35,027 nt of DNA from an uncultured Candidatus Peribacteria bacterium (GCA_964538225.1 CAZIDW010000003.1:1-35027); one strand, 5' to 3'; numbered from the stretch's first letter, positions 59 through 33,745 are shown. Notes: generated by a model not told the origin, from the letters alone. Numbers and translations: made by a program.

Positions 59-129
59 ATTTCTGATTTTATTTACACATTTAAAAATATCCCATTTCAT
101 TCTGAAATCTAAAATGTGAAAACTGAAAT
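59..129. repeat. heptamer-array palindrome (ATTTCTG/CTGAAAT family) just past the purD stop
   Basis: ctgaaat-ctaaaat-gtgaaaa-ctgaaat at 102-129, one atttctg at 59; spacer tttatttacacatttaaaaata resembles that at 10878-10899. Confidence 0.6.
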
Positions 130-132
130 GAA

Positions 133-1437
133 TTAGCCTCTCAGCTCCTTCATCATCTTCACCCGCCTCTGAATCAACTCTTGCGTCCCGATGTCTTTCC
201 GGTAAAAAATGGATCCCTCCACACTTTCCACCCCCTGCTGAGCCAGTGCTTCCGCTTCTTCGATCGTATCCGCGATGCCGACAAACGCCACGGCGCGGGA
301 ACCGGTCATGACCAATTCACCATCTACCTCATTCACCGACGCGTAAAAGACCTTGAGCCCTTCCGGGAGCGGGCCGATTTTGATTCGTTCGCCTTTTACC
401 GGGTTTACCGGATAGCCTTCCGGCACCGCGTATTTGCAGACGGTGGCTTTTTTAGAAAATTTGATGTCGAGTTCATCGAGCGTGCCGTTGATCATCGCCT
501 GACAGACATCAACATAATCGGTTTCTAAAAGCGGCAAAGCGTTCATGGCTTCCGGGTCGCCCAGGCGGACATTGTATTCGATCAGGCGGACACCGTCTTT
601 TACCGCGATAAACCCGCCATACAAAACCCCGACATAATTCTGGCCGGTTTCTTCTTTGATCGCTTTCACGGTCCCCATATTGATGGCATGCGCGTCTTTT
701 AAATCCCGTTCATTGAGAAAAGGAAAATTTTCGGGGTAATTATACGTGCCCATTCCGCCGGTGTTGGGGCCGGTATCACCTTCATACGCGCGCTTGTGAT
801 CCTGAATGGGGGGCATGTCGACAACGTTTTTTCCATCCACAAAGCTCATCAAACTGAATTCCTGACCGACAAATTTTTCCTCGATCACCACCTTTCCGTC
901 GCGCTCCACGCATTCTTTGGCATACAGCACGCCATCTTCCAGTTTTTCAAAATGGTCGCCCTGCACCTGGACCCCTTTTCCCCCTTGTAAACCATCCGCT
1001 TTCACGACAATCTGTCCAACTTTATTCGCGAATTCCATCATGCCGTCGATGGAGGTAAAGGTTTTGAATTTCGGGCCGCCGGGAACCTTGTGTTTGGCGA
1101 GTAATTCCCGCGTGAAGGATTTGGAACTTTCGATCCGGGCCAGTTCTTTAGCCGGTGACGCGGACGGAATACCGATGAGTTTCAGAACATCCACCACCCC
1201 CGCCGCCAGCGGGTTTTCCGGGCCGATAACCGCGAAATCCGGTTTATTTTCATTCGCAAATTCCTGGATGGCTTTCATATCTTTCAGATCCCCCGCATGA
1301 TAAACGGATGCGAGATCCCGGATGCCGGGGTTTACAGCACTGGCGTATACCAATAATTCATTGCATTTAGAAGATTTTTTAAGGGCTTCGGCCATGGCGT
1401 GTTCACGGGCTCCGTTGCCAACTAATAAAATTTTCAT
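133..1437 (-). CDS. purD: phosphoribosylamine--glycine ligase
   Basis: 434 aa; N-terminal GNGAREHA, IGPENPL, ESSKSF, KADGLQGGKGV, QDHKRAYEGDTGPNTGGMG and EYNVRLGDPE motifs of GARS. Confidence 0.97.
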   Translation of the reverse strand: MKILLVGNGAREHAMAEALKKSSKCNELLVYASAVNPGIRDLASVYHAGDLKDMKAIQEFANENKPDFAVIGPENPLAAGVVDVLKLIGIPSASPAKELARIESSKSFTRELLAKHKVPGGPKFKTFTSIDGMMEFANKVGQIVVKADGLQGGKGVQVQGDHFEKLEDGVLYAKECVERDGKVVIEEKFVGQEFSLMSFVDGKNVVDMPPIQDHKRAYEGDTGPNTGGMGTYNYPENFPFLNERDLKDAHAINMGTVKAIKEETGQNYVGVLYGGFIAVKDGVRLIEYNVRLGDPEAMNALPLLETDYVDVCQAMINGTLDELDIKFSKKATVCKYAVPEGYPVNPVKGERIKIGPLPEGLKVFYASVNEVDGELVMTGSRAVAFVGIADTIEEAEALAQQGVESVEGSIFYRKDIGTQELIQRRVKMMKELRG

Positions 1438-1491
1438 AATGTCTGATATTTAAAAAATACTGCCCGCCTATTATAGCGTAGATTGGGGAAA

Positions 1492-2008
1492 AGTCGACCA
1501 CCCCGCCCCGATTTTCATCGGGGCACCCCTCCTTAATTAAGGAGGGGATTTTTTTGATGTTTGTTTTTTATTTTTTTGATACAATATTGAACTTTATGAA
1601 TCTAAAATAGAATAATGAGAATACACAATCGAATAATTGAATATGATTTAAGAAAAAAGCTAAGAAATAATATGACCGAGGCAGAGGTAATATTGTGGTC
1701 ACAACTTAAGGGAAAACAATTACAAGGTCTAAAATTCAGAAGACAACATAGTATTGAATCTTATGTCTTAGATTTCTATTGCCCAGAATTAAAATTGGCT
1801 ATTGAATTAGATGGCGAATATCATTTAAAAAAAGAGATTCAAGAATATGATCAGGAACGCCAAAGTTATATTGAAGATTTGGGAATTTCTTTTATTCGTT
1901 TTACAAACAAAGAAGTTTGTAAAAATGTAAATGAAGTTATTCAAAAAATCCTATCAGCAACCCCCTCATCGGATGAGGAGGGGTGCCCGTAGGGCGGGGT
2001 GGTCGACT
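1492..2008. mobile_element. DUF559 cassette bounded by inverted REP-like repeats
   Basis: 17-bp perfect terminal IR agtcgaccaccccgccc (1492-1508 / 1992-2008) plus a 13-bp inner IR (1521-1533 / 1976-1988); AT-rich interior. Confidence 0.7.
1615..1992 (+). CDS. DUF559 / Vsr-like PD-(D/E)XK endonuclease domain protein
   Basis: 125 aa; LRNNMTEAEVILW, FRRQHSI..YVLDFYC, LAIELDG.YH, D..R..Y...LG...IRF.N. Confidence 0.92.
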   Translation: MRIHNRIIEYDLRKKLRNNMTEAEVILWSQLKGKQLQGLKFRRQHSIESYVLDFYCPELKLAIELDGEYHLKKEIQEYDQERQSYIEDLGISFIRFTNKEVCKNVNEVIQKILSATPSSDEEGCP

Positions 2009-3764: not shown

Positions 3765-4760
3765 TCAGAATTTTCGAAGGACATTTTTCATATAACTCTT
3801 CACCGGAATCAGAATCGACTTCCCCAGTGCGCAAAACGAGGTCTTGCCCATGGTCTCGACGATTTCCATCATCTTTTTCCAGGGCACCCGCTTATGGCGT
3901 TTGAGGAGTTTATATAATTGATACGACCCTTCCCGACAGGGCGTGCATTTGCCGCAGCTTTCTTTGGCGTAAAACTCAAACCAATGCAGGAGCAGTTCGC
4001 GGGGATCGGTTTCGGCTTTAAAAACCTGAATGGAACCCGCGCCGGTCATCTTCTGGGTTTCTATTTGTTTTTGATTGATGACCAGACCGCTCGCCCCGCC
4101 CCCGATCTGCGCGAAAAAATCATAACGGGGGTAGCGTTTGGTCTCTTTGAGGATTTTTTCAATCGTCCAGTCATCGGGCAGGTAGCAGACTCGGTTTCGT
4201 TTCAGCGGGCTGGACAGGGAATAAAAGCGCTTCGGCTCAAACTTATCTTCCGCCACCTGGGCGATGTTGAACAAAGTTTCCACATTGTGGATAAGGGTGG
4301 GTTTGCCGAACAGTCCTTCATCGCACGGGTAAGGGGGTTTTAGGCGCGGTTCAATACGCTTTCCTTCGATGGCGTTCAAAAGGGCGGTTTCTTCCCCGCC
4401 GATGTAGCTGGGCTTTTCTTCATACACGGTGAACCGGTATCCCCTGGCTTCATAGCGCTTTAAGATGGAATCGAGTTTTAGCACCACCCGCCGGTAATAC
4501 TTTTTATTGAAATTAAAATAGGCCTGTTTGGTTCCTAAAAAATCCATCGCCAGCACCATGCCTTTCACCACATCTTCCGGATATTTTTTAAGAATGTGGA
4601 TGTCTTTAAACACATCCAACTCCCCTTCGCTGGCGTTGCAGATAACATATTTCGGCCGGCCGGCCGCTTTTTTGACCATTTCCCATTTGCGCGCGACGGG
4701 AAAACCCGCGCCCCCCCGGCCCACCAGTTTCGCGGCTTTGATTTTGTCGAGAATATCCAT
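3765..4760 (-). CDS. NuoF/HydB-like FMN/NADH-binding subunit (short form)
   Basis: 331 aa; GRGGAGFP..KW, CNASEGE, YIGGEETALLNAIEG, NVETL, ESCGKCTPCREG..C. Confidence 0.9.
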   Translation of the reverse strand: MDILDKIKAAKLVGRGGAGFPVARKWEMVKKAAGRPKYVICNASEGELDVFKDIHILKKYPEDVVKGMVLAMDFLGTKQAYFNFNKKYYRRVVLKLDSILKRYEARGYRFTVYEEKPSYIGGEETALLNAIEGKRIEPRLKPPYPCDEGLFGKPTLIHNVETLFNIAQVAEDKFEPKRFYSLSSPLKRNRVCYLPDDWTIEKILKETKRYPRYDFFAQIGGGASGLVINQKQIETQKMTGAGSIQVFKAETDPRELLLHWFEFYAKESCGKCTPCREGSYQLYKLLKRHKRVPWKKMMEIVETMGKTSFCALGKSILIPVKSYMKNVLRKF

Positions 4761-4796
4761 GGATTTCTTATGGATTGCTAATGGATGTTAATCAGC

Positions 4797-4873
4797 TGTC
4801 AGGTGTCAGGTGTCAGATGTCAGCTGTCAGGTGTCAGGTGTCAGATGTCAGATGTCAGTTGTCAGATGTCAAT
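4797..4873. repeat. tandem TGTCAGN heptamer array (10 units plus one variant)
   Basis: Units counted directly at 4797-4866, then tgtcaat, which contains the stop codon of the upstream minus-strand gene. Confidence 0.97.
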
Positions 4874-5381
4874 CAGTTATATTTTTTAAAATAAGATACG
4901 CCACGCCTCCTCCGATCACCGCTGTAACAAACTGCGGCCAGCTCATCATCACGGCCAGTTTGGCAACGATTTCCTGCTTCAGCAGTTTGCTCATAATCAG
5001 CGTGACGGATTCATGGAGAAAGGCGAATTTAAGAAACGCGGCAATGCCGATTGCCAGTAAAAAATTTCTTTTATATAGGTAATAAAAGGTGGCGACCAGT
5101 ACCGCGTTGCCGATCATAATAAACGGCACCATGAGTGCCAGAGGCAGCGGGAGCAAACCGGCGACAAGCGCGATGGTGCTGGGCATCAGACCGATGAGCA
5201 CCGCCTCCATAGGACCAATGAGAACGGTGGTTATTATCAAAACCGCATTGACCATCGGGCCGGTGATCCACTGGATGTGGATAAAGGCGGGGACGATGAT
5301 GGATAAACCGAACAATCCCGCAAAAAGAAGAATCTTAATACGGGTAGAATCAAGTGCCTGAGTCAGGTGTTTTTTATTCAT
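4869..5381 (-). CDS. ECF transporter S-component-like membrane protein
   Basis: 170 aa, about 5 hydrophobic segments; QWITGPMVNAVL, PFIMIGN and WPQFVTA patterns; co-oriented with the hydrogenase genes. Confidence 0.7.
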   Translation of the reverse strand: MNKKHLTQALDSTRIKILLFAGLFGLSIIVPAFIHIQWITGPMVNAVLIITTVLIGPMEAVLIGLMPSTIALVAGLLPLPLALMVPFIMIGNAVLVATFYYLYKRNFLLAIGIAAFLKFAFLHESVTLIMSKLLKQEIVAKLAVMMSWPQFVTAVIGGGVAYLILKNITD

Positions 5382-5529
5382 GATCTTTGTTTCATATTGA
5401 TAAATATTTTACCATACAAGGGGGGTAAATAAAAATTTTATAATGGATTTTAAGATGATTCGCCCCCTGCCGCCTGTATTTTACTGCTGTTTTATGGTAA
5501 AACTAATTTTGCCATTTAACCTTAAAATC

Positions 5530-5712
5530 ATGTCCTTAGAAAAACCCAGAGACGATGAGCCTTCGGAAGCGGAAACCGAAAGCCGAAAAACCAGAAAACC
5601 GCTTAATCCGCATTACTTAGCGGTCGCCATGGGCCAGGCGAATATGACCCACGCGCGGGCTTTGGCTGCCATAATGGAAGATAAAAAAAATAATCCGGAT
5701 GCCGATGAATAA
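5530..5712 (+). CDS. small hypothetical protein (60 aa from ATG 5530)
   Basis: ATG after an AT-rich leader; stop overlaps the next start; no recognised motif. Confidence 0.45.
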   Translation: MSLEKPRDDEPSEAETESRKTRKPLNPHYLAVAMGQANMTHARALAAIMEDKKNNPDADE

Positions 5713-6511
5713 ACATCTGGTCCGTTTAAAAACATTGCAGATCATCGTGGACGGCCTGTTACTTCTGGCCGCGTTCGCGCTGGCTTATTTTCTGCGCATC
5801 GGCTTTTACTTTTCAACGGATTTTCCGTTTGATCAGTATATGATCATCGCCCTTATTACCACACCCGTTACGCTGGGATTCATGTTTTTCGCCCGCGCCT
5901 ATAAACTGACCCAGCAGATCCGGAGCCTGCGGCACATGCAGAGGATCGCGTTTGTGGCGATCGAGAATGTGGCGGTGTTTATGGTGCTGTATTACTTCGC
6001 GTACCAGAATTTCTTTTCGCGCCTGATCCTGGTTTACATCTTTCTGCTGACGTTCCTGTTCGTGTATTTCTGGCACCGGATCTTTAAATGGATTTTGCAG
6101 AAAAGCGCGGAACGGGAAGTGGGCGTGTACCGCACGCTCATCATCGGCGCGAACCGGCCGGCGGAAGCAATTGTGAAACACCTGATCCAGACCAAATCTC
6201 ACATCAAACCGGTGGCGATTATTGACGCGCAGGGAACGGGTAAAAGCGTGATCGCGGGGGTGCCGGTAGTGGGTAAGATGAATGTGTTTGAAAAAGCCAT
6301 CGCCCAGCACGACGTCGACCATATTCTTCAGGCGGATCATCTGGAGCAAAGCTTAAACATCATCAATTACGCCCTCCAGAACAACCTTAAATTCATCATG
6401 CCGCCGGAACTTCTGGGAATCTTTCAGGGACATCAGCGGGTAGAGGAAATTGAAGGACAGCCGTTTTTGAAAGTTGTGAGGAAGAAACATTGGTGGGATA
6501 AAATCTGGTAA
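5705..6511 (+). CDS. N-terminal part (4 TM + Rossmann-like domain) of a WcaJ/WbaP-type sugar transferase, no catalytic domain
   Basis: D-helix start, FFSRLILVY, RTLIIGA, GVPVVG, EEIEGQPFL; stops where the catalytic domain would begin. Confidence 0.75.
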   Translation: MNKHLVRLKTLQIIVDGLLLLAAFALAYFLRIGFYFSTDFPFDQYMIIALITTPVTLGFMFFARAYKLTQQIRSLRHMQRIAFVAIENVAVFMVLYYFAYQNFFSRLILVYIFLLTFLFVYFWHRIFKWILQKSAEREVGVYRTLIIGANRPAEAIVKHLIQTKSHIKPVAIIDAQGTGKSVIAGVPVVGKMNVFEKAIAQHDVDHILQADHLEQSLNIINYALQNNLKFIMPPELLGIFQGHQRVEEIEGQPFLKVVRKKHWWDKIW

Positions 6512-6519
6512 ACCTTTTT

Positions 6520-6615
6520 AAAATAACAAATATCAAATTTTAAATATCAAATTTTAATTTAAGGTACCAAAAATTGTAATTTGTCATTTGTAATTTAAAA
6601 TTTAAAATTTGTAAT
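6520..6615. repeat. heptamer-array palindrome (NNCAAAT/ATTTGNN family), copy 1
   Basis: 6520-6609 matches the reverse complement of 30588-30677 at 82/90 positions. Confidence 0.9.
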
Positions 6616-6617
6616 TA

Positions 6618-7562
6618 GTGAAGTGTATTATACTGGCCGGCGGTTTCGCGACACGGTTGTGGCCGCTGACGGAAAATAAGGCAAAACCCCTTCTGCACCT
6701 GAAGGATAAACCGATTATCTCGCATATTGCCGACGGCCTGCCGGAGGATATGGAAATCGTTATTTCGACCAACGCGGTTTTTGAAAATGAATTTAAAAAA
6801 TGGGCGAAGGATTATAAAAACCGCCCGATTAAAATTTTTGTGGAGGATTCGTTTGACGATGAATTTAAAAAAGGGGCGTTGGGCGCCGCCGCCATGGTGA
6901 TCGGGCACGAAAAGCTGGATGAGGATTTACTGCTGATCGCCGGCGATAATTATTTCGGATTTAAAATGAAGGATTTTATTGATTCTTACCAAAATAACCC
7001 CCTGTTGGCGGCGTACGATATCCGGAATCCGGATTTGGCGAAACGGTTTGGAGTCGTGGTTGAACAGGGCGGACGTGTGGTCGAATTCCAGGAGAAACCG
7101 CAGGAGCCGAAAAGCACTTTAGTGAGTACCGGCTGTTATATTTTTCCCAAAGAAAATCTGGACGATATTGTGGAATATGCCAAAGAAAAAAATGATGATT
7201 TGGGCGGCATTTTTGAACATCTGCTTAAAAAAGGAGTGCCTGTCAGCGTTTTTTCTTTCAGGGAAAAATGGTTTGATGTGGGGTCGTTTGAGGGTTATCT
7301 GGAAGCAAATCGGGAGCTTCTGGACGAACGGGTGATCGAAAACGGTCAGGTGGAAAAAGAAGGCTCACAATTTAAGGGCGGCGTTTATTTGGGTGACCAC
7401 ACAACAATCCAAAATTCGACTTTAGAAAACGCGGTGATTTTAAAAAACTGCAAAATCATCAACTGCGTGCTGAGAAACTGCATTGTGGATGAGGGATCTG
7501 AACTTAAAAACATCGACCTGAGCCACAAGATGATACGGCAGGGTAGTAAAATACAGAAATGA
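6618..7562 (+). CDS. sugar-phosphate nucleotidyltransferase with C-terminal left-handed beta-helix
   Basis: 314 aa; ILAGGFATRLWPLT..KAKPLL, IAGDN, FQEKP, WFDVG; GTG start. Confidence 0.92.
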   Translation: MKCIILAGGFATRLWPLTENKAKPLLHLKDKPIISHIADGLPEDMEIVISTNAVFENEFKKWAKDYKNRPIKIFVEDSFDDEFKKGALGAAAMVIGHEKLDEDLLLIAGDNYFGFKMKDFIDSYQNNPLLAAYDIRNPDLAKRFGVVVEQGGRVVEFQEKPQEPKSTLVSTGCYIFPKENLDDIVEYAKEKNDDLGGIFEHLLKKGVPVSVFSFREKWFDVGSFEGYLEANRELLDERVIENGQVEKEGSQFKGGVYLGDHTTIQNSTLENAVILKNCKIINCVLRNCIVDEGSELKNIDLSHKMIRQGSKIQK

Positions 7563-7643
7563 TCAATTTTAAATGACAAATGACAAATTTTAATTTTGCA
7601 TAAAGTAAACCGGCCAAAATTGTCATTTAAAATTTGTCATTTC
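7557..7643. repeat. heptamer-array palindrome (GACAAAT/ATTTGTC family)
   Basis: caattttaaatgacaaatgacaaattt ... aaaattgtcatttaaaatttgtcatttc; starts on the stop codon. Confidence 0.85.
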
Positions 7644-7678
7644 ACAGGGTTTCCGCTAAACTTATTCCGCCCGTTTTT

Positions 7679-7752
7679 ATGACGAAATGACGTAATAATG
7701 AAATGACAGATAAATTAAGTTGTTTGCCACTCCGTCATATCGTTATCTCGTA
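7679..7752. repeat. octamer-period inverted array upstream of secD
   Basis: atgacgaa-atgacgta-ataatgaa-atgacaga ... ccgtcata-tcgttatc-tcgtatt. Confidence 0.55.
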
Positions 7753-7775
7753 TTAATATTTAATTCTAAAACAAG

Positions 7776-10121
7776 ATGTTTTCCCGTGTTTCCAAAGGAC
7801 TTATCTTTATCATTATCGCCTCTATCCTGATGGGGGTGATAGCCCTGCCCTATTCCGTTAAATCCACCTGGCCGGACAACAAGCTGGTCAACTTTTTCGA
7901 AAACCCGAAAATCACCCTGGGGCTCGACCTGCAGGGCGGAACCCAGCTGGATTACCGCATCGATCTGAGGAACGCGCACGCGAAAAACGAAGACGATGAC
8001 AAGGCCAACGATGTGCGCATCAAAGACATTGTCGAGGGCGTGCGCACTACCATCGAACGCCGGGTGAACCGTTTGGGGGTCTCCGAGCCGCAGATCTACC
8101 TTTCCAACGTGGCGGATGAACAGCACATCATCGTGGAGCTGGCCGGCATCAAGGATATCGAGGAGGCTAAGCGCGTAGTGGGCAAGACCATCCAGCTCGA
8201 ATTCAAGGAAAAAAAGACGGAAATGGATCCGGATGAAAAGGAAAAGGTAAAAGCACAGGCCACAGCCACACTGGAAAAGGTGCTGGCGTCCGGTGCAGAT
8301 TTCCGGGAAATCGCTTTAACCACCCAGACCAGCGATAAAAAAATCGATTTCCGGGAAAACCAGACCACATGGGAATCCGAACTGCCGGCACGCCATAAAG
8401 ACTTACTGCCCGCGATGGAACCAGACACTGTCCATCCGGAACTCATTGAAGGAACGGATGGTTATGTGGTCGGTGAAAGCGGCCAACTGACCGAACAAAA
8501 AGGCCTTTACCTGCTGCAGTTCCTCGGCAAAGAAACAAAGGAACGCACCAAATCCGTCACCAAATCCTTCCGTGAGGTAACGGAAGCGTTCGATAAACTG
8601 CGCGACACGGAAAACTTTAAAAAACGTTCTGACTTTCCGGAACATGTGGCGGACATCCTGTGGGCGACGCCTGTTAATGAACTGACGAGCGTCATCGAAG
8701 TGGAAGATGAACTGAAAGTGTACGAAGTGCTGGCCAAAGACGAAGGAAAAGGCGAAGTGAAGGCCAGCCATATCCTGATCGCCTACCAGGGCGCAGAACG
8801 GGCTGCGGAAAATGTGACCCGCACGAAAGCGGAGGCGGAACAGGAAGTCAGCGACTTATTAAAACAAATCAATGACAATCCGAATCGCTTTGAAGAATTG
8901 GCCAAAAAGCATTCAGATTGCTCATCAGCAGCCAGTGGAGGGGATCTGGGCTTTTTCGGTACCGGGCAGATGACCCCGGCTTTTGAAGACGCGGCGTTCG
9001 CGCTGGACGTGGGCGAAGTTTCGGACGTGGTGGAAACGGAATTCGGTTATCACATCATCAAGACTGCTGACAAAAAAGGCGGGGATGAGACGGTTTCGGT
9101 AGCCGTTCTGACCCTGCCGGACACCGAGGCAAACCGCGCCAAACTGGAAGAAGAGCTGGCTCTCACGGAACCGCATGAGGTAACTGTTGAGGAAACCGAA
9201 TACAATTATCACGAGCTATTTTTCGACCTGACACCTGACCCCTGGAAATCCACAGGACTGGATGGCGCGCATTTCAAGCATGCCACGGTGACGTACAACC
9301 AATTAGGCGCGCCCCAGGTGAGTATCGAGTTCGACAGCGAAGGATCGGACATGTTTGCCGACATCACTGATCGCCTGGTAGGAAAGCCACTGGCCATCTT
9401 TGTCGGCGGGGAACTGATTTCCGCGCCGAATGTGAATGAAAAGATCAGCGGAGGCGCGGCTGTGATCACAGGCAATTATTCCATCCGGGAAGCGCTCCAG
9501 CTGGCCACCGACTTAAACACCGGCGCCATTGACGCCCCGGTCATCCTGACCGGCCAGCACACCATCAGCGCCACTTTGGGGGAAAGCGCACTGCGCGTAT
9601 CACTCCTGGCTGGCCTGATCGGCCTGATCGGCCTGGCGCTTTATATGATCCTCTGTTATCGGCTGATGGGTGTGTTCGCTGTCCTGGCGCTTATCATCTA
9701 CTCTATTATCATCATCTTCATTCTGAAGGTTACCGGCATTGTGATGACACTGGCGGGCATCGCCGGCATCATCCTGTCTATCGGTATGGCGGTGGATGCG
9801 AACATCCTGATTTTCGAGCGCACCAAAGAAGAGCTTAATTCCGGCAAGGGTTTTCAGGCGGCTGTCATCACCGGTTTTGAACGCGCCTGGTCCTCTATTC
9901 GGGATTCCAATGTCTCTTCTCTTATCACCTGCGCCATCCTGTGGTTCTTTGGAAATTCCATCATCCGGGGATTTGCCCTGATGCTGGCTATCGGTATTCT
10001 GATTTCCATGTTCACGGCCATTACCGTGACGCGCCAGTTCCTGAAGACTCTGCCCGGCACCCGCTTGGCCAAAAACCGCTTCTTATTGGGAACGAAGGAA
10101 ATCGAGTCCATTAACCGATAA
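7776..10121 (+). CDS. secD: protein translocase subunit SecD with inserted parvulin PPIase domain
   Basis: 781 aa; LGLDLQGG, RRVN.LGVSEP, GMAVDANILIFER, AWSSIRDSN, RGFA; internal KASHILI...SAASGGDLGFF...FEDAAFAL...ETEFGYHII. Confidence 0.95.
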   Translation: MFSRVSKGLIFIIIASILMGVIALPYSVKSTWPDNKLVNFFENPKITLGLDLQGGTQLDYRIDLRNAHAKNEDDDKANDVRIKDIVEGVRTTIERRVNRLGVSEPQIYLSNVADEQHIIVELAGIKDIEEAKRVVGKTIQLEFKEKKTEMDPDEKEKVKAQATATLEKVLASGADFREIALTTQTSDKKIDFRENQTTWESELPARHKDLLPAMEPDTVHPELIEGTDGYVVGESGQLTEQKGLYLLQFLGKETKERTKSVTKSFREVTEAFDKLRDTENFKKRSDFPEHVADILWATPVNELTSVIEVEDELKVYEVLAKDEGKGEVKASHILIAYQGAERAAENVTRTKAEAEQEVSDLLKQINDNPNRFEELAKKHSDCSSAASGGDLGFFGTGQMTPAFEDAAFALDVGEVSDVVETEFGYHIIKTADKKGGDETVSVAVLTLPDTEANRAKLEEELALTEPHEVTVEETEYNYHELFFDLTPDPWKSTGLDGAHFKHATVTYNQLGAPQVSIEFDSEGSDMFADITDRLVGKPLAIFVGGELISAPNVNEKISGGAAVITGNYSIREALQLATDLNTGAIDAPVILTGQHTISATLGESALRVSLLAGLIGLIGLALYMILCYRLMGVFAVLALIIYSIIIIFILKVTGIVMTLAGIAGIILSIGMAVDANILIFERTKEELNSGKGFQAAVITGFERAWSSIRDSNVSSLITCAILWFFGNSIIRGFALMLAIGILISMFTAITVTRQFLKTLPGTRLAKNRFLLGTKEIESINR

Positions 10122-10123
10122 AG

Positions 10124-10302
10124 CTGATTGGTAGCTGACATCTGACACCTGACAGCTGACATCTGATTGACATCTAATCAACAGCAGTACGCATGTGCGC
10201 ACCTGTGTAGGCCTGAAAGGCCGCGCACTCGCGCACCATAAATAATCAAATAATCAGCAATCCATTAGCAAGTCGATTAGCAATCCATTAGAAGTCCATC
10301 AG
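10124..10302. repeat. composite repeat: NCTGACA heptamers, GC-rich hairpin, agcaatccatt repeats
   Basis: 4 NCTGACA units at 10134-10161; ggcct-gaa-aggcc hairpin at 10210-10222; 11-12-mer repeats at 10256-10300; both repeat modules are shared with 4758-4876. Confidence 0.85.
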
Positions 10303-10307
10303 TAATT

Positions 10308-10829
10308 ATGAATCTCAGCAAAAGCCTCCAACAGCAACTCGACGAACACATCCCCAAGCGCGAACAGCCGGCCTTTATGGAATTGGCGATCAAGACCCAG
10401 CTCCGCAAACACCAGGCGGCAAACGCGGACAGCGTGGATGTGTATGTGGATGGCGGGGCGCGTGGCAATCCTGGTCCGGCCGGCGGAGGGTTCGCGGTTT
10501 TTCGGGGCGGGGAAAAACTGCTGGAAGGTTCCGAGTTTTACGGTGAAAAAACCAACAACCAGGCGGAATATCTGGCTTTACGGACAGCGCTCCGGGAGGT
10601 GTTCAACCGTTTTCCGGACTCATCCATCCACTGTTTTATGGACAGCCAGCTGGTGGTGGAGCAAATGAACGGCAATTATAAGGTAAAAAACGAAAACATC
10701 CGTCCGATTTTTGAAGAAGTCCAGCGGATTGCGGGGCAGTTTAAAAATTTCCGAATCAAACACGTCGAACGCGGACAGAATAAGCTGGCGGATAAACTGG
10801 CCAATCAGGCGATGAATCGCGGCGCTTAA
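10308..10829 (+). CDS. rnhA: ribonuclease HI family protein with N-terminal extension
   Basis: YVDGGARGNPGPAG, TNNQAEY, DSQLVVEQMNG.YKVK, HV.R..N..AD.LAN. Confidence 0.92.
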   Translation: MNLSKSLQQQLDEHIPKREQPAFMELAIKTQLRKHQAANADSVDVYVDGGARGNPGPAGGGFAVFRGGEKLLEGSEFYGEKTNNQAEYLALRTALREVFNRFPDSSIHCFMDSQLVVEQMNGNYKVKNENIRPIFEEVQRIAGQFKNFRIKHVERGQNKLADKLANQAMNRGA

Positions 10830-10846
10830 ATGCGCCTTAATTTTAC

Positions 10847-10953
10847 ATTTCTGATTTGTGATTTCTGATTGTATTTTTTTATTTGTACATTTAAAAATAC
10901 CAAATGAATAAATACTGATTCAAATCAGAAATCTGAAATCTGAAATCTTAAAT
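10847..10953. repeat. heptamer-array palindrome (ATTTCTG/CAGAAAT family) between convergent rnhA and trxA
   Basis: atttctg-atttgtg-atttctg ... aaatcag-aaatctg-aaatctg-aaatctt. Confidence 0.85.
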
Positions 10954-10962
10954 GAGCAATTT

Positions 10963-11286
10963 TTAGGAGTTTTTTTCTACCACTTCCATAAGCTGGTCTT
11001 TTTGGTGGACACCCACCATTTCATCGACCACTTCGCCGTTTTTAAAAACTTTGAGTGCAGGAATACTCATCACGCCGTACTGGGTGGCGAGCTCGGTATT
11101 TTCATCCACATTCACCTTAAAGACTTTCACCTTTCCCCCTTCTGAATCAACCAATTCATCCAGAATAGGCCCCTGTGTCTGGCACGGGCCGCACCAGGGC
11201 GCCCAGAAATCCACCAGGACCGGTGTGTCTTTAACATCTAAAACATCTGACTGGAACGTATCGCTACTCGTTTCTTGTGCTGGCAT
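10963..11286 (-). CDS. trxA: thioredoxin
   Basis: 107 aa; VDFWAPWCGPC, SIP cis-Pro motif. Confidence 0.96.
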   Translation of the reverse strand: MPAQETSSDTFQSDVLDVKDTPVLVDFWAPWCGPCQTQGPILDELVDSEGGKVKVFKVNVDENTELATQYGVMSIPALKVFKNGEVVDEMVGVHQKDQLMEVVEKNS

Positions 11287-11387
11287 AATAAAACGTTTTA
11301 AAAATTAAAGTTATAAAGTTATATAAAGAGGATACAAAAAGTCTGCCAGTTTTTCAAGTTCACAGAACCTTCTTAATATCCCTTGAT

Positions 11388-11432
11388 AACAAAACCCCCT
11401 CAGCCATATGGGCTATAGGGGGCCTTGTTTTT
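11388..11432 (-). terminator. probable intrinsic terminator of HU (possibly bidirectional)
   Basis: ccccct-c-agcc-atatg-ggct-at-aggggg hairpin flanked by aacaaaa and ttgtttttt. Confidence 0.6.
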
Positions 11433-11473
11433 TGTTTTACTTAAAACGATTTAACGGATTCCGCCTGAGCGGA

Positions 11474-11749: not shown

Positions 11750-12119
11750 AATAAAAAAAAATAAAAAAATAAAATCACTCGTTCGCCTGATTCTGAGGGC
11801 TTATACAGATACCGGCAGCCTATCGCGGGCGCTTACCGATACCCATCATACCTCTGATAAAAGCGAATAGTGCAAAGGCAGTATACTTAAGCGGGCCTGA
11901 GCCTGACAAGAGATTTTCCGCTTTATCTAGCGAAAAAGTCGGTTGATAAAATTTTGTATTCAGGTTTTATTCAGTATTTAAGCCAAAATCCGCGGATTTG
12001 ACGAAAATGCAAAAAAATTAGCAGAATTAATGTTAATTTGGGCTTATTTAAACGGAAGATTAACAATCTTTTTTTGGTGGCTTTACCTTTTTTTAGACAG
12101 CCTGATCTGTACAATTGAT

Positions 12120-21728: not shown

Positions 21729-22439
21729 ATGTTTTTTACAAAAGATGACGAAGAAAATAGCATAAAGAAGCAAGCTGTTATTTATGTCAAACAACATAAG
21801 CAGAAAATATTGGCGAGATTTGCTAATGATCAAATTTGCGAACAGCAAGATGAACCTATTTCCATTTTTATGGCAGGCTCACCAGGTGCGGGGAAAACCG
21901 AATTTTCAAAAAATTTATTAAAAAAGGCAGGTTTTAATGCTGTGCGCATAGACGCAGATGAAATTAAAGAAATTATTCCTCAATACAATGGAGAAAATTC
22001 CACACAAGTTCAAGGCGCCTCTGCATTAGGAGTTCAGTATTTATTTGATTATGTTTTGCAGAAGCAAAAGAGTCTAATATTGGATGGTACATTTGCTGAT
22101 TTTGATATTTCATGTAAGAATATTGAACGGTCGATTAAAAGAGGGAGGCCGACTGAAATATATTACATTTATCAAGACCCTCTAATCGCATGGCAGTTTA
22201 CAAAGGTAAGAGAGGTTCTTGAGGGACGTTTTGTGCCAAAAGTACTCTTTGTTAATTCTCTATTTCAAGCTAAGGAGAATGTAAATAGGATAAAGAAAAT
22301 TTTTGGAGAAAAGGTTAAGATCCATGTCGTAATAAAAGACTTTGAACACAAGTTGCAAAAATTCCATTTAAATGTCGGAAATATTGACAATCATTTAAAA
22401 ATAAGCTATAATAAAGAATCCCTATATAAAAAATTATGA
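21729..22439 (+). CDS. zeta toxin family P-loop kinase
   Basis: 236 aa; MAGSPGAGKT Walker A, RIDAD, ILDGT, R...EGR.VP. Confidence 0.88.
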   Translation: MFFTKDDEENSIKKQAVIYVKQHKQKILARFANDQICEQQDEPISIFMAGSPGAGKTEFSKNLLKKAGFNAVRIDADEIKEIIPQYNGENSTQVQGASALGVQYLFDYVLQKQKSLILDGTFADFDISCKNIERSIKRGRPTEIYYIYQDPLIAWQFTKVREVLEGRFVPKVLFVNSLFQAKENVNRIKKIFGEKVKIHVVIKDFEHKLQKFHLNVGNIDNHLKISYNKESLYKKL

Positions 22440-23123: not shown

Positions 23124-23153
23124 CCTAGTCCTTAGTTCTTAGTCCTTAGTCCT
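23124..23153. repeat. CTTAGTC heptamer array abutting the asnS ATG
   Basis: cctagtc-cttagtt-cttagtc-cttagtc-ct-ATG. Confidence 0.85.
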
Positions 23154-28045: not shown

Positions 28046-28960
28046 CTACCTTAATTTCTTATAAACCCGATACACCCAATACCAAACCGGCCGCACGACC
28101 ATTTCTTTGGCCTGCGGGTAATCAACCGTGTGGCCGCCGAATTTCTTTTTAAAACTAGTCACCCCCGCCCACGCGTGCCCCTCGGCGCCTTCAGGTGCGA
28201 TGCCCAGAAAATCGTAATGTTTACAGCCGCGTCTTTTGGCTTCTTTTATCGCCTCCCATTGGATAAGGTAGGGCGCCATCACATTCCGATAGGTTTCCGC
28301 TGACGCGCCATAATAATAAATCCCCCACTCGTCCAGATATACAAAAAAGCCACCCGCAATCACCTCTCCATTACAGGCCGCCAGTAACAATTGCGCGTTT
28401 TCAGGCATGGCCTGTAACATTTTTCGGTAATAGGATTTTGGATGGATACCGAATTTGTCACGAAACCCTGTTGTGGAGAGTAAATGATAAAATGTATCGA
28501 CATCCACACTCGGCTTCACGGTGACTTCATGCTTTTGAGCGACCTTGATGTTATAACGGCCTTTGGGTTTCATCTGCTTCAGAATGTCTTCTTCGCTTTG
28601 ATCCAGGTCGAGGATGAGGCTGGTTTGGGGCTGATGATCATATTGCGAATCTCTTAGTCCGTAGTCTTTAGTCTTTAATCCTTCAAAGGGGGACAAACGG
28701 ACGAAAATCGCCTTCTGTTTTTTGGCGGTTTCCCGGATTTCAATCAGGATCTGTAACAAACCTTTTTTATCCTTAAAAAGCGGGCCGCGCGGACATTCCA
28801 GCCAGCAGAAACCAAGAGGCAGTTCATGTTTTACAAGCAAGGCCGAGGCGCCATCCGCTTCCAGTAAAAAGACTTTCCGTTGAACAGCGCTCTGAAACGC
28901 CGCCCACAAGGGGTGCTGCCATAAGTTACGCCGTTTGTTTGTTTTCCAGAATTCCAGCAT
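28046..28960 (-). CDS. FemABX family peptidoglycan bridge aminoacyltransferase
   Basis: W..FQ, PRGP, QP..SLILDL, MKPKGRYNI..A, YYYGAS, YDFLGI, FKKKFGG. Confidence 0.92.
   Translation of the reverse strand: MLEFWKTNKRRNLWQHPLWAAFQSAVQRKVFLLEADGASALLVKHELPLGFCWLECPRGPLFKDKKGLLQILIEIRETAKKQKAIFVRLSPFEGLKTKDYGLRDSQYDHQPQTSLILDLDQSEEDILKQMKPKGRYNIKVAQKHEVTVKPSVDVDTFYHLLSTTGFRDKFGIHPKSYYRKMLQAMPENAQLLLAACNGEVIAGGFFVYLDEWGIYYYGASAETYRNVMAPYLIQWEAIKEAKRRGCKHYDFLGIAPEGAEGHAWAGVTSFKKKFGGHTVDYPQAKEMVVRPVWYWVYRVYKKLR
28653..28680. repeat. intragenic NNTAGTC heptamer array
   Basis: cttagtc-cgtagtc-tttagtc-tttaatc, encoding part of GLKTKDYGLR. Confidence 0.7.
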
Positions 28961-29847
28961 TATTTTAAATATTTAAACAGACTGAACATCAATAGCCAGA
29001 AAATCTGGCAGTAAATAATGAATATAACTTCCTGGGGGCCAAAATAACTTTGAGCCAAAACAATACCCAAGCCGACATTTAAAAATAATAAGTTGCTTTG
29101 TGCGCTGATTTTATCTTTTTTCCCTTTGATATAAATCACCATTAGCTTGGCAAAAAAATATAAAATCAAATGTGCCACAAGAACAGCCAGCCATAAGGTC
29201 TGATTTAACAGATTTGCAACCAATTCCTTATTGTAAGGAGCTAAGGCGCCAAAAAATAATAAAAATAAAATCAGCAAACTGATCAATTTGTATGATTTTT
29301 TAGTTTTTTCAATGGTCTTTTTGGCAAAATATTGGGCTGACAGGCTTAAAATAAACGGCACTGCCATCAAAACCAATAATTGCCATAAAATGGTATATAA
29401 GCTTACCTCCACTTTTTTACTGGCAAAAAAGGCCAAAAGAATTGTTATTGTAAACGGGCTAAGTAAATTGGAAAAAACTGTATTGGTTGTGGTAAGAGCC
29501 ACATTCCCTTTATATATCCTGGCCACAGCTGGCGCGGAAACCGCTGACGGCAAAAGCATGAACAAAAGGGCGCCCAATAAAAATTGAGGGAAAAAATGCC
29601 CCATGATCGGAATGCTGACCAAAGGAGCAACGACCAAAATCACCATAACCATAAAAATCTGATCCATTGGTTCTTTTAATTCATTTAACAATTTTTTCGG
29701 GTCAAGTCCCAAAAATGCCACAAGCAAAAGGCCGCCCAAAAGCCAAGTCGTAAACGGAGAAAATAATCTGCCGATCTGAGGCAGAGCCAGTGCGGCCGGA
29801 ATGGCCAATAGGGGGATTAGATTAATGGCTTGTGTTTTTACTTTCAT
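28960..29847 (-). CDS. bile acid:sodium symporter family transporter
   Basis: 295 aa multi-TM; PSAVSAP....YKGNVAL......SNLLSPF, N.GLG. Confidence 0.8.
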   Translation of the reverse strand: MKVKTQAINLIPLLAIPAALALPQIGRLFSPFTTWLLGGLLLVAFLGLDPKKLLNELKEPMDQIFMVMVILVVAPLVSIPIMGHFFPQFLLGALLFMLLPSAVSAPAVARIYKGNVALTTTNTVFSNLLSPFTITILLAFFASKKVEVSLYTILWQLLVLMAVPFILSLSAQYFAKKTIEKTKKSYKLISLLILFLLFFGALAPYNKELVANLLNQTLWLAVLVAHLILYFFAKLMVIYIKGKKDKISAQSNLLFLNVGLGIVLAQSYFGPQEVIFIIYCQIFWLLMFSLFKYLK

Positions 29848-30455: not shown

Positions 30456-30459
30456 AGTG

Positions 30460-30579
30460 ACGAAATAACGAAATAACGACATAATTCATCCTCTTTAGTA
30501 TATAGCGTATTGCGCTTAATTTACAATGAACAAAATAGTGCGCACCAGCATATACTACAGAGAACGGACGATACAGCAA
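30460..30579 (-). repeat. 120-bp dispersed hairpin element, copy 2
   Basis: Reverse complement of 14438-14557 with 6 substitutions. Confidence 0.95.
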
Positions 30580-30587: not shown

Positions 30588-30677
30588 AATTTTAAATTTT
30601 AAATTACAAATAACAAATGATAATTTTTGATATCTTCAATTAAAATTTGTCATTTAAAATTTGATATTTGTTATTTT
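30588..30677. repeat. heptamer-array palindrome (NNCAAAT/ATTTGNN family), copy 2
   Basis: Reverse complement matches 6520-6609 at 82/90. Confidence 0.9.
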
Positions 30678-31840: not shown

Positions 31841-33068
31841 GTTTTTGTAAGATTAAAATGCTGGCAATAATGAGCCAAAAGATCATGGCCAGATCGTTTT
31901 TCCAGAATGGCATATCGAACAAACCGTGGATCAGTATGCCCCACAGGGCGATGAGCGGATAGGTAAATGAGGTGTGGCATAAAATAATGAGGGCTAAAAA
32001 GGCAATAAGGCCGATCAGGCCAGCGTTGAGCCAAAAGCCGATAAAAATGTTATGGGAATGAGGCATGTTCCATTCCAGCGGGGCGCGCCCCAGCACGTTT
32101 GGGGCGCTGATCTGATAATTGGGCTGAAAAAGCCCCGGCCCCGCGCCGAACTGCCAATTGTCTGTGACTAACCGGTAAGAGGTCTGGTAGATCTCCAGAC
32201 GGACGGTGGTGCTGGAGCGGTTTTTGAAATCCAGGAACTGCCTGAATTTGGGGGTATTCAGCTGACTCACAATGATCACCGCAAACGTTGCCCCCAGCAC
32301 CAGTAACGCCAGCCCGATCTTTTTACGCTGTTTCGGATTTTTAAACAAAAAGTAAAGCGCGTACAGCCCCAGCGCGCCAAACACCGCGATTACCCCCGCG
32401 TACGACTGGGTGAAAAACAGGCTGTACATCAGCACCACCAGGGTGGATAAGTCGATATGGTCCCGGTGGGAGGGCAGAGCCGTGCCGCGCCGGAGAAGGA
32501 AATAGATGTTGATGAGGATGGCCGGTACGATGTAAAGCGCCAGGTAATTGGCGGATTCATAAAATCCCCTCAAGCGGAAATCAATGGTCACGCCGGCGCC
32601 GAAGAGCCCGAACCCATAGGACAGCAGGCAGACCAGCGTGGCGGAGTAAACGAAATAACGGAGGACCTTTTCAGCGTGTTTGTCGGTTTTCAGCGCCTGG
32701 GTCAGGACCGCGAAATACAGCACCGGCGCGATGATCCAGCCTTTCCATACGCCCCAAGCGGCGCGTTTGGCGTTCAGGACTTCGCCGCTCGGCAGAGACA
32801 GGAAATCCGGGGCGGCCAGCGTGCCGAGCGTAGCGCCTACCACGATAAAAAAGACCGTGTACCAGTACCGGCGGGTTTTTTTAGTCCACACTAGCTCCCG
32901 ATGCGCCCTGAACAGGCTCATCAGCCATAGGGCGAACAACAGATAAATAAAAACCTCCAGCGCGGTGAACGGGATGCCGATGATCTGGAAACGCACAAAA
33001 TACGCCGGAAACAGAAACGGCGAAACGAACAAAAGTTTCCGGACGAAATGTGAGAGGGGTGGTTTCAT
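31749..33068 (-). CDS. O-antigen ligase (Wzy_C) family membrane protein
   Basis: 439 aa multi-TM; RLRGFYESANYLA, TQS, R..IY, G.GPG.F, HSHN, HGLFD.P. Confidence 0.88.
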   Translation of the reverse strand: MKPPLSHFVRKLLFVSPFLFPAYFVRFQIIGIPFTALEVFIYLLFALWLMSLFRAHRELVWTKKTRRYWYTVFFIVVGATLGTLAAPDFLSLPSGEVLNAKRAAWGVWKGWIIAPVLYFAVLTQALKTDKHAEKVLRYFVYSATLVCLLSYGFGLFGAGVTIDFRLRGFYESANYLALYIVPAILINIYFLLRRGTALPSHRDHIDLSTLVVLMYSLFFTQSYAGVIAVFGALGLYALYFLFKNPKQRKKIGLALLVLGATFAVIIVSQLNTPKFRQFLDFKNRSSTTVRLEIYQTSYRLVTDNWQFGAGPGLFQPNYQISAPNVLGRAPLEWNMPHSHNIFIGFWLNAGLIGLIAFLALIILCHTSFTYPLIALWGILIHGLFDMPFWKNDLAMIFWLIIASILILQKHGTHTVKKPALKVKRRPARRAQKSPRKRKA

Positions 33069-33071
33069 AAA

Positions 33072-33132
33072 AGGACACAGGACCCAGAACTCAGGACACA
33101 GCTGTTTTCTGTGTTCTGTTTTCTGTGTTCTG
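33072..33132. repeat. heptamer-array palindrome (AGGACAC/CTGTGTT family)
   Basis: aggacac-aggaccc-agaactc-aggacac-ag | ctgtttt-ctgtgtt-ctgtttt-ctgtgtt-ctg; fills the hpf/ligase spacer. Confidence 0.9.
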
Positions 33133-33136
33133 AAAA

Positions 33137-33706
33137 TTAGTCGTTATCCATTTTCGGCTCGACGATGCCGTAATACCCATCGTGCCGTTTGTACACCACG
33201 CTGAAACGGCCGGTATCCATGTTATTGAAAAGGAAAAAATCGTGGCCGATAAGCTCCATCCGCTCGATGGCTTCTTCTTCTTTCATGGGCGCGCTGGCGG
33301 AAAAGCGTTTCCGCCTTAGGATCTGGGGAATCTCGAATTCATCGGACGGTTTTTCCGGCACTTCTTCGATTTTAGCGCCCAAACCCTTTTTGTCGGACCG
33401 GTGCATTTTGGCTTTATAGCGTTCAATGGGCTTATGGATTTTATCCATGCAGTCATCGACCGCGCTTTCCACATTCTCCCCCCTGGATTCGGCCCGGAGG
33501 ACCGCGTTCGGGGCAAAGATCGTGAGCTGGCAGACGTACGCGTCTTCGGTTTTGCGGGCTTTTTCGTGTTTCACTTCCACCCTGAATTCCGTGGACTCAT
33601 CATCCAGACGGTCTGCCAGGTTTTTCAGTTTTTCGACTTTGGATTCAATCAGGTCTTGCTGGTTGTCGCTAAGGTTAAGTTGTTGGGATTTGATCTTGAT
33701 CTGCAT
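33137..33706 (-). CDS. hpf: ribosome hibernation promoting factor, long form
   Basis: RaiA-like N-domain plus C-domain RRKRF...PM..EEAI..MELIGHDFFLF.N.......VVYKR.DG.YG. Confidence 0.95.
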   Translation of the reverse strand: MQIKIKSQQLNLSDNQQDLIESKVEKLKNLADRLDDESTEFRVEVKHEKARKTEDAYVCQLTIFAPNAVLRAESRGENVESAVDDCMDKIHKPIERYKAKMHRSDKKGLGAKIEEVPEKPSDEFEIPQILRRKRFSASAPMKEEEAIERMELIGHDFFLFNNMDTGRFSVVYKRHDGYYGIVEPKMDND

Positions 33707-33710
33707 AAAC

Positions 33711-33745
33711 TTCAGATTACAAATTAAAGATTTAAGATGTCAGTT
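33711..33745. repeat. degenerate heptamer array next to the hpf start
   Basis: ttcagat-tacaaat-taaagat-ttaagat-gtcagtt. Confidence 0.5.

Follow-up and report, generated by a model that had tools for sequence, protein, structure and literature searches.

The gene junctions of the DNA analysed here, the first 35,027 nt (the window) of contig C3 in G000, a 1.29-Mb metagenome-assembled genome (MAG; 108 contigs, 97.7% complete) of an uncultured Candidatus Peribacteria bacterium, are occupied by short tandem arrays of mostly 7-nt units. We propose, with a probability of roughly 0.6, that these arrays belong, as solo members, to a single element family, the complete form of which is a cassette carrying a small four-helix-bundle (4HB) gene between inverted arms of tandem repeats, and that the family works in the manner of REPINs (hairpin-forming doublets of repetitive extragenic palindromes, REPs) and their REP-associated tyrosine transposases (RAYTs). 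The proposal joins two unexplained features, intergenic heptamer arrays and the 4HB open reading frames (ORFs) of rRNA intervening sequences: because arrays form the cassette arms, the repeat unit co-diverges with the protein and gene-less arrays follow the resident genes, both puzzles gain one candidate that can be tested, a small protein whose binding to its own repeat could be assayed. A preliminary description, made from the window sequence alone, had listed 12 such loci and had suggested that they might be empty or non-autonomous derivatives of arrays that flank 4HB genes; the observation is confirmed and the interpretation supported here. To call the arrays unlike anything known is too strong, since repeats of this kind are already published for cyanobacteria, Xanthomonas and Beggiatoaceae: they are heptamer arrays like the short tandemly repeated repetitive sequences (STRRs), a known kind, and it is their tie to 4HB genes that appears undescribed. 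G001 and G002 denote congeners of G000, and 31 genomes of the class were compared.

Four-helix-bundle genes with inverted repeat arms

G000 contains 11 matches to PF05635 (23S_rRNA_IVP), 10 of them above the cut-off; none lies on contig C3, in agreement with the preliminary description, which had seen no such gene in the window, and the window arrays are all ORF-less. The encoded proteins score 93.6 bits against TIGR02436 ('four helix bundle protein'), match PDB entry 2gsc (E 4e-9; five chains in the entry) and are weakly similar to the Avd protein of diversity-generating retroelements (DGRs; NF033474, E 2.4e-5, far under the model cut-off). An inverted-repeat (IR) score was computed between 150-nt flanks; 8 of the 11 4HB genes exceeded 11.5, the threshold set by the 95th percentile among 1032 control genes (Mann-Whitney p 2.4e-6). 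The cassettes share a layout. A 5' arm of 3-23 tandem units, most of them 7 nt long and some 8-12, is followed by a leader of 0-140 nt, by a PF05635/TIGR02436 ORF of about 120 amino acids and by a 3' arm that repeats the 5' arm in inverted orientation. Ten of the 11 genes are located outside rRNA, upstream of protein-coding genes or between them, and an unbiased search for long loops between inverted arrays yielded no recognised cargo other than 4HB genes.

Candidates for other cargo in array-bracketed loops were traced to adjacent solo hairpins or to spurious ORFs, and the idea that the arms are exact mirror copies was dropped as unproven, the higher agreement in register (0.88, against 0.75 at a shift of ±7) being biased by a register that was itself chosen by alignment. 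At C17:18149-18750, AAATTTA/GTAACTN-type arrays surround a stretch of about 350 nt that has no convincing ORF and a promoter-like sequence upstream, and that may be a small RNA gene.

Like these eight cassettes, the intervening sequences of 23S rRNA are stem-loops that carry a PF05635 ORF in the loop; they sit at the tip of an rRNA helix, whereas the window loci lie outside rRNA (Rfam and tRNA scans of the window gave no match) and their stems are tandem arrays. ORFs of 23S_rRNA_IVP type in rRNA insertions of the candidate phyla radiation have been published (PMC11270868). The 23S rRNA gene of G000 (contig C39) contains an ORF-less CTGACAN/TGTCAGN hairpin of about 99 nt at Rfam model position ~583 and, in a different helix, a 543-nt insertion with a 4HB ORF at ~686. 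The latter insertion interrupts a native helix, between the strands of a non-repetitive 31-nt stem, and in this favours an alternative in which the hairpins are the host's own RNA or DNA elements (processing sites, stabilisers or terminators) and the 4HB genes insert into their loops, the arrays being the target. We judge this alternative unlikely, on evidence that is given with the results below. Elsewhere in the genome, an insertion in a 16S rRNA gene (C19:18925-19167) carries, between complementary stems, an 80-aa ORF that resembles GIY-YIG proteins (motif, by eye); according to a 2024 survey (PMC11270868), the 16S genes of Candidatus Peregrinibacteria are insertion-free.

Co-divergence of arm unit and protein

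When metagenomes were scanned with an alignment of two sequences from one 4HB subfamily, 80 loci emerged, 73 of which had at least 100 nt on each side and 56 of which were distinct; 45 of the 56 passed the IR threshold, every one with period 7. Protein identity was correlated with the 6-mer similarity of the arms (Spearman 0.49, Mantel 0/2000), also in the 1511 pairs without outer-flank homology (0.46), and a comparison restricted to the arms gave 0.47 (Mantel 0/2000) and, in 972 pairs from different contexts as judged from some 450 nt of outer flanking sequence on either side, 0.45. Clades on the protein tree correspond to the unit families TAGGTKW, TAGATAW, AAGATTW/AAGTTGW and CCGATTW. Such co-divergence of arm unit and 4HB protein across contexts is not expected of a target that belongs to the host. 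The stricter notion of one unit per 4HB paralog, one to one, was unsupported at long range.

Similar cassettes occur on plasmids. A tblastn search of PLSDB with one 4HB protein returned 42 records, mostly from Nostoc (19) and Calothrix (4); 12 of the 14 plasmid regions analysed are cyanobacterial, 8 of the 14 pass the IR threshold, with examples in Nostoc edaphicum (GTAGGGA x8 before and TCCCTAC x5 behind the gene), Calothrix, Anabaena sp. 90, Picosynechococcus and Gemmatirosa, and 12-13 have an adjoining tandem array. Some plasmid copies are located within CRISPR-cas operons; another, from Azospirillum, lies in 23S rRNA. The association of heptamer arrays with 4HB genes, which the preliminary description had put forward, was found in all four sets, that is, in G000, among its relatives (27 of 39 cassettes, as detailed below), in metagenomes and on plasmids.

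Genome-wide excess of period-7 arrays

Tandem Repeats Finder (TRF) reported 299, 116 and 34 non-redundant arrays of period 7, 14 and 21 in the 1.29-Mb genome (about 450 together), against 29-45, 4-5 and 1-5 in three third-order Markov shuffles, about a tenth of the real number. A genome-wide lag-autocorrelation scan (21-nt window, at least 18 matches), of the kind that the preliminary description had proposed, gave 152 segments at lag 7, compared with 19 at lag 8, 17 at lag 12 and 10 at lag 11, the best of the non-multiples of 7; 114 of the 152 were intergenic, though intergenic DNA makes up 12.3% of the genome by crude ORF calls. The units are diverse, with 103 canonical heptamers among the 299 arrays, and their variation does fall at fixed positions, as had been remarked earlier: across 220 TGTCAGN units, conservation is 88-99% at positions 1-6, and the bases A, C, G and T stand at position 7 with frequencies of.29,.23,.27 and.21, the selection pattern having left that position free for any base. 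Besides cassettes, G000 has 51 solo hairpins with loops of at most 100 nt. Reduced Patescibacteria genomes thus bear a heavy load of such arrays, also within operons (groESL) and rRNA. A preferred size of 4-5 units (a pentamer ruler) was considered and dropped, the mode (154 of 449 arrays) being confounded by the TRF detection threshold.

One explanation of the excess would be that the arrays are slippage microsatellites of a small genome that lacks mismatch repair, their proximity to 4HB genes being a by-product of few intergenic spacers. MutS (PF00488) was indeed not found in 26 of the 31 genomes, including all 19 of family f1 to which G000 belongs (it was found in 5); array length and presence vary among congeners, and most arrays are short (median 4.1 units). 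We nevertheless consider this explanation quite improbable. Four MutS-negative genomes (G006, G012, G014 and G025) have 0 lag-7 segments in 100, 60, 33 and 100 kb, and array-free genomes occur within family f1 itself; the excess in G000 is confined to period 7, with no segments at lags 2, 4 and 5 and two at lag 3; and six conserved positions beside a free seventh, the inverted pairing of arrays, the absence of such flanks from similar-sized control genes and the co-divergence of unit and protein all speak against slippage.

The gene-less arrays follow the cassettes that reside in the same genome. Solo arrays, defined as the 203 period-7 arrays separated from every 4HB gene by more than 300 nt, matched the 8 resident cassettes 14, 23, 45, 32, 0, 43, 1 and 26 times, and 19 foreign cassettes a median of 0 and a maximum of 19 times (p 0.0012). 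Altogether 99 of the 203 share a unit with a resident arm, as the idea of empty or non-autonomous derivatives would have it, and units common to solo arrays and resident cassettes also speak against repeats owned by the host.

Filled and empty junctions among relatives

PF05635 occurs in 25 of the 31 class genomes, with 0-16 matches each. Among 39 cassettes in 22 class genomes, 27 passed the IR threshold, the periods being mostly 7-9 (5-12 among those passing) and the units unrelated. For G001 and G002, syntenic contigs were aligned to the window, the genes being 72-83% identical at the nucleotide level. Between groES and groEL, G002 has CCGATTW x4, a 119-aa PF05635/TIGR02436 ORF and CGGWAAT x4, a 'filled' junction; G001 has an ORF-less GTGACTN/GAGNCAC hairpin, and the junction of G000 is also ORF-less, with another unit, so that one of the three congeners is filled and two are empty. 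Upstream of topA, a cassette (with period-8 arms) occurs in G001 only. Arrays and 4HB genes thus vary in presence among congeners, in the comparison that the preliminary description had recommended; of the three results that it had named as grounds for abandoning the idea, none was obtained, since a period-7 excess, presence/absence variation and an associated gene family were all found.

Across G000 and 21 relatives (samples of 17-100 kb from each relative), the density of lag-7 segments followed the PF05635 count (Spearman 0.77, n=22). Genomes with at most 3 PF05635 matches had 0-3.3 segments per 100 kb (n=11), and those with at least 7 had 1.7-21.3 (n=11). That genomes with few 4HB genes are nearly array-free despite having the same operons is difficult to reconcile with host elements.

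Two further alternatives invoke known enzymes. In the first, the arrays are REP/REPIN-type repeats spread by RAYT-like Y1 (IS200-like) transposases; G000 has two PF01797 matches, and Y1_Tnp was found in 20 of the 31 genomes. The two G000 genes stand beside other palindromes of about 20-26 nt, not beside heptamer arrays, and Y1_Tnp counts, with 4HB counts controlled, were hardly correlated with array density (0.13, p 0.57), whereas the 4HB counts kept a partial correlation of 0.62 (p 0.002) with Y1_Tnp controlled, and we regard this alternative as very improbable. In the second, which we find hardly tenable, a reverse transcriptase (RT) and an Avd-like protein make the arrays by DGR-like or telomerase-like templated addition. 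The weak Avd similarity of the 4HB proteins and the one RT gene (PF00078) of G000 would suit it; against it, PF00078 gave matches in 10 of the 31 genomes only and none in the array-rich G001, G002, G003, G019 and G023, and the free position of TGTCAGN is not adenine-specific, position 5 (A) being 99% conserved.

Several 4HB cassettes have an SOS-like promoter on one side and a radA-like gene on the other, a position in a 5' untranslated region. Ahead of six 4HB loci in six genomes (L094, L109, L117, L118, L121 and L123) we noted TTGAC-N-GTGAACAnnTGTTTACTAnnnT, a conserved promoter-like element resembling an SOS (LexA) box; the cassettes behind it are followed by a radA-like or some other gene, and the motif also precedes a RAYT-like gene on contig C38. 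In one pair of 4HB orthologs (G000:C6:16727-17131 and G001:C3:14571-14873), protein identity is 96%, compared with 86% for TopA of the two genomes, a contrast that suggests recent exchange or strong constraint.

Arrays of the window

Window arrays were called at a TRF score of at least 30, and RNA folds were compared with 200 shuffles (z-scores). The array loci are as follows.

59-129: weak ATTTCTG/CTGAAAT-type arrays round the core ACATTTAAAAATA, just 3' of purD (TRF 101-129, period 7, 4.1 copies, 72% matches); fold z -0.8, no significant hairpin
4759-4873: composite single array of ATGGATTGCTA x2.5 (period 11), then TGTCAGN x11.4; 4791-4873 folds with z -2.3
6520-6615: solo hairpin with AAATATC/AAATTTT and ATTTGTA/ATTTAAA arms (TRF 6521-6552, 6574-6616); fold z -1.6
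7557-7643: solo hairpin with AAATGAC/AAATTTT arms (TRF), beginning on the stop codon of the NTP-transferase gene
10133-10299: CTGACAN x4.6, about 75 nt, then AGCAATCCATT x3.9, between the SecDF-PpiC stop and the RNase H start (TRF, alignment)
10847-10953: solo hairpin with ATTTCTG/ATTTGTG and CAGAAAT/CTGAAAT arms and a 40-nt loop, between convergent RNase H and thioredoxin genes (TRF)
14407-14437: single ATTTCWG array right behind the topA stop codon (TRF, 4.6 copies); no hairpin
16700-16760: weak GGTTGTG../CCACAAC.. hairpin in the groES-groEL spacer, the 'empty' state of that junction
23124-23153: single CTTAGTC array ending at the ATG of a class II (Asn/Asp/Lys-type) tRNA synthetase gene (TRF, 4.0 copies, 90% matches)
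28653-28680: weak in-frame GACTAAA-like array at a variable linker within a FemAB-like coding sequence (TRF score 34)
30588-30677: solo hairpin (TRF) in the divergent spacer ahead of purN; arms AATTTTA/AATTACA/AATAACA, fold z -2.3
33072-33132: solo hairpin with AGGACAC-type and CTGTKTT arms, filling the Wzy_C-HPF spacer
33711-33775: weak mixed array ATTACAA ATTAAAG ATTTAAG, then period-8 units AGCACTNN; fold z -1.2

All 12 loci of the preliminary description were read, and TRF recovered period-7 or period-14 arrays at 11 of them; at the twelfth, 33711-33745, which TRF did not report, a weak ATTNNNG-like periodicity is visible by eye. Its other statements stood in part. The period of 7 common to the loci is borne out by the genome-wide excess, with the qualification that period-8 (7679-7707, 30460-30484) and period-11 arrays (4759-4786, 10256-10299) also occur in the window. 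The placement at stop and start codons is likewise seen, the arrays occupying spacers from stop codon to start codon, except that 28653-28680 lies within a coding sequence (aa 94-103 of ORF 28046-28960). Hairpin formation, which it had ascribed to many of the loci, applies to about half: six fold beyond their shuffles (7557-7643, 10847-10953, 33072-33132, 30588-30677, 4791-4873 and, weakest, 6520-6615), four of the loci combining z <= -2.3 with loop-separated arms, and the remaining six (59-129, 10134-10172, 14407-14437, 23124-23153, 28653-28680 and 33711-33775), classed as single arrays, fold no better than shuffles.

The strongest hairpins are 33072-33132 (-29.9 kcal/mol, z -5.0), 10847-10953 (-27.3 kcal/mol, z -5.8) and 7557-7643 (-20.5 kcal/mol, z -4.0), at each of which 0/200 shuffles were as stable. 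Three of the hairpins share 7-mers with the arms of the resident 4HB cassette C75:786-1139, namely 6520-6615 (36), 7557-7643 (24) and 30588-30677 (40), and the CTTAGTC array at 23124-23153, which forms no hairpin, shares 20 with the arms of a cassette in another genome (G014:C9). The AGCACTNN units at 33711-33775 resemble the right arm of the resident cassette C6:16727-17131 (AGCACT motif, by eye).

At the same junctions the congeners often carry other repeats. The spacer that 6520-6615 fills entirely, from the stop of a CoA-binding-domain gene (6511) to the GTG start of an NTP-transferase gene (6618), holds an AAATNNN hairpin in G000, TGTCCAR/CGGACAT in G001 and a period-12 hairpin in G002; the Wzy_C-HPF junction has hairpins of CGTGTCT/CACGAGW in G001 and AGTCTTA/TAAGACT in G002. 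G001 and G002 have non-repetitive G+C-rich hairpins at 7557-7643, hairpins of other units at 10847-10953, shorter arrays of other units at 10133-10299 (which alone forms no hairpin, z -0.2) and a differing junction at 30588-30677. At the array position in the FemAB-like gene, G001 shows no indel and G002 has another, longer insert. The array behind topA (14407-14437) is the only one whose sequence is conserved in all three congeners, G001 and G002 having ATTTCTG/ATTTCAG arrays at the same place; a similar array to that at 23124-23153 stands at the same place in G001.

The composite array 4759-4873 fills the spacer between the start of a NuoF-like gene and the stop of an ECF-S gene, and its unit occurs in 24 further arrays of the genome; the repeat that G002 carries there is unrelated. 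The arrays 4759-4873 and 10133-10299 are inverted copies (39 of 42 positions identical in alignment of the former with the reverse complement of 10121-10310, non-array flank included). The two lie 5.3 kb apart with five genes between them, and contigs from DNA runs join them on opposite strands. A look-up of runs containing 4700-14600 listed none of RNA; Logan contigs of two DNA runs are fragmented, breaking at or piling up on arrays, and contain one 8-nt deletion, on one low-depth contig. The core ACATTTAAAAATA is common to 59-129 and 10847-10953 and has array context at these two loci only; as a dispersed element it was rejected, with two copies only in array context.

Hairpin function and points against the proposed reading

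Several observations would suit hairpins that serve the host: some hairpin is present in all three congeners at groES-groEL, 6511-6618 and 33068-33137, the single arrays at the topA stop and the tRNA-synthetase start are kept between congeners, and transcript stability or translational coupling has been suggested for STRR hairpins (PMC2670836). Tests of function point the other way. Hairpins gained no stability on the sense strand through G.U pairs (13 more stable in sense, 22 in antisense; Wilcoxon p 0.47), a result that does not speak for selection acting on the RNA. The 44 intergenic hairpins (30 in tandem, 6 in convergent and 8 in divergent spacers) showed no junction-type preference relative to background (chi-square p 0.76, 0.36), and seldom resemble intrinsic terminators, which have a G+C-rich stem with a T run behind it and are lacking in divergent spacers, where 8 of the hairpins lie, as background predicts; a consensus scan placed a terminator-like site within 1 of 13 parts (33092-33118, in 33072-33132). 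Co-location of arrays at window junctions, by an automatic detector, was not significant between G000 and G001 or G002 (Fisher p 0.62 and 0.66), which implies high turnover. The hairpin data fit a selfish or near-neutral element better than a regulatory device of the host. Positional conservation of arrays among congeners was set aside as a candidate, repeats being seen at many junctions by eye and the automatic count being non-significant.

The reading of the arrays as solo members of a cassette family has points against it as well. Four window units (TGTCAGN, ATTTCWG, AGGACAC and CTTAGTC) have no resident cassette in the 108-contig assembly, and cassettes with one arm or none make up 12 of 39 in the class, 11 of 56 metagenome loci and 6 of 14 plasmid loci. 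Among distant 4HB paralogs, protein and arm similarity are uncorrelated (Spearman -0.09; Mantel 1685/2000), and the C10a cassette of G000 and the groES-groEL cassette of G002, 71% identical, have units (AAAGATT and CCGATTW) with only GATT in common. A mirrored order of unit variants between arms was significant in just 5 of 28 cassettes under a permutation control. The p-values of the abundance comparisons and correlations are overstated, the compared genomes being kin; Y1_Tnp counts also correlate with array density (0.60 over 22 genomes); the short outer flanks narrow what 'different context' means; and the lack of a sense-strand advantage and of a junction-type preference tells against this reading too.

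Relation to known systems

To our knowledge, cyanobacterial STRRs have stood without explanation since 1990. The present arrays resemble STRRs and other heptamer simple sequence repeats in their 7-nt tandem units, intergenic bias and abutment on start and stop codons, in occurring as single arrays and as hairpin-capable inverted pairs of mostly about 4 units, and in keeping their type while varying in length between relatives. The classical STRR1-3 units belong to filamentous, heterocystous cyanobacterial hosts, whereas the arrays here crowd a Patescibacteria genome of about 1.3 Mb with many coexisting unit families. The 7-bp STRRs form hairpins of unknown function (PMC2670836); GGGNATC repeats of Xanthomonas and Nostoc form inverted pairs with a preference for four units (PMC4692102); and TAACTGA repeats occur in Beggiatoaceae, Cyanobacteria and Bacteroidetes (PMC4679880), "no mechanism is evident" being the verdict there on their spread. 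The arrays described here differ in being tied to 4HB genes: 'helix bundle', 'S23' and 'intervening' occur 0 times in the available text of PMC4679880 and PMC4692102. Literature searches, with subscription journals and supplements outside their reach, found no paper linking heptamer arrays to 4HB genes.

REPIN-RAYT systems combine inverted repeats round a gene, gene-less doublets, a repeat type set by gene lineage and an abundance that depends on the gene. The likeness to the present family lies in a small gene inside inverted short repeats with gene-less hairpin doublets scattered between genes, in a repeat type that tracks the gene lineage and in an abundance tied to gene presence; it concerns how the system works, not membership. 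RAYTs are HUH transposases acting with one palindrome of about 20 nt, whereas here a bundle of about 120 amino acids without a known catalytic motif, encoded by many gene copies per genome, accompanies 7-nt tandem units. The 4HB proteins belong to the same fold family as the Avd proteins of DGRs, and PF05635 is described as resembling Avd (PMC10053308). DGRs unite an RT, Avd and template/variable repeats, whereas neither an RT nor such repeats were seen beside the cassettes read here, no search aimed at the repeats having been made.

Proposed mechanism

In the proposed cassette family the arms would pair with the ORF in the loop, in the geometry of a 23S rRNA intervening sequence, and the gene would be inherited, and would move, together with its arms. 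Cassettes would give rise to solo arrays and hairpins, through loss of the ORF or copying of the arms, and these may in turn be landing pads, since recombination between dispersed arrays of the same unit could move a cassette. Slippage, in a lineage in which MutS was not found, may lengthen and shorten the arrays. A 4HB oligomer would bind its own heptad repeat, as DNA or RNA, giving a partnership like that of REPIN and RAYT in which a small nucleic-acid-binding helical bundle replaces the transposase. In enterobacteria and Leptospira, RNase III is reported to excise rRNA intervening sequences; G000 has an RNase III gene, and the enzyme may cut the stem in transcripts in the same way.

A bolder version, which we offer tentatively and think has clearly less than an even chance, makes PF05635 proteins sequence-specific readers of heptad repeats: each lineage would recognise, homogenise and propagate its own 7-nt unit, and gene, inverted arms and gene-less arrays would form a transposase-free, self-propagating element. 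If true, it would give one explanation for the cyanobacterial STRRs, for the heptamers known from Xanthomonas, Beggiatoaceae and Bacteroidetes, and for the ORFs that rRNA intervening sequences carry.

Other features of the window

Relatives of TopA (73-86% identity) come from MAGs labelled Patescibacteria group, Candidatus Peregrinibacteria or Peribacteria, on which ground a cyanobacterial origin, first guessed from the repeats, was rejected; the source run is labelled a microbial-mat metagenome; in some class members TGA is read inside genes. By Pfam, the window genes are ordinary housekeeping genes (purD, FeFe-hydrogenase-like, SecDF-PpiC, topA, groES/EL, msrAB, purN, HPF and others) with a few islands between. 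Two that adjoin arrays are given here.

133-1437, minus strand: purD
7776-10121: 781-aa ORF in which SecD/SecF domains are fused to a PpiC-type rotamase domain

Four islands vary among the congeners: 18515-19540 (msrAB), absent from G001; 20125-22439 (a low-G+C DNA methylase-Mrr fusion and a zeta-toxin-like gene), absent from G001 and unaligned in G002; and ~25.9-28.1 kb (a YafQ-like toxin region) and 28960-29847 (an SBF-family transporter), absent from both. A perfect 15-nt inverted repeat, GTCGACCACCCCGCC / GGCGGGGTGGTCGAC, encloses a 125-aa DUF559 (Vsr-like endonuclease) gene at 1615-1992 (+); the stretch measures about 515 nt in the window and about 139 nt in G002, the presence/absence variation of a small stem-loop gene.

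A dispersed element of about 105-120 nt has six copies of 92-96% identity, at 14438-14566 (+) and 30460-30575 (-) in the window and on four more contigs (C18:17854-17957, C8:13989-14110, C76:3078-3172 and C92:518-617). The copy at 14438 lies inside a period-8 array, and the junction in G001 and G002 is without the element, which contains promoter-like TTGTAA..TATACT and AAAGAGG..ATG motifs.

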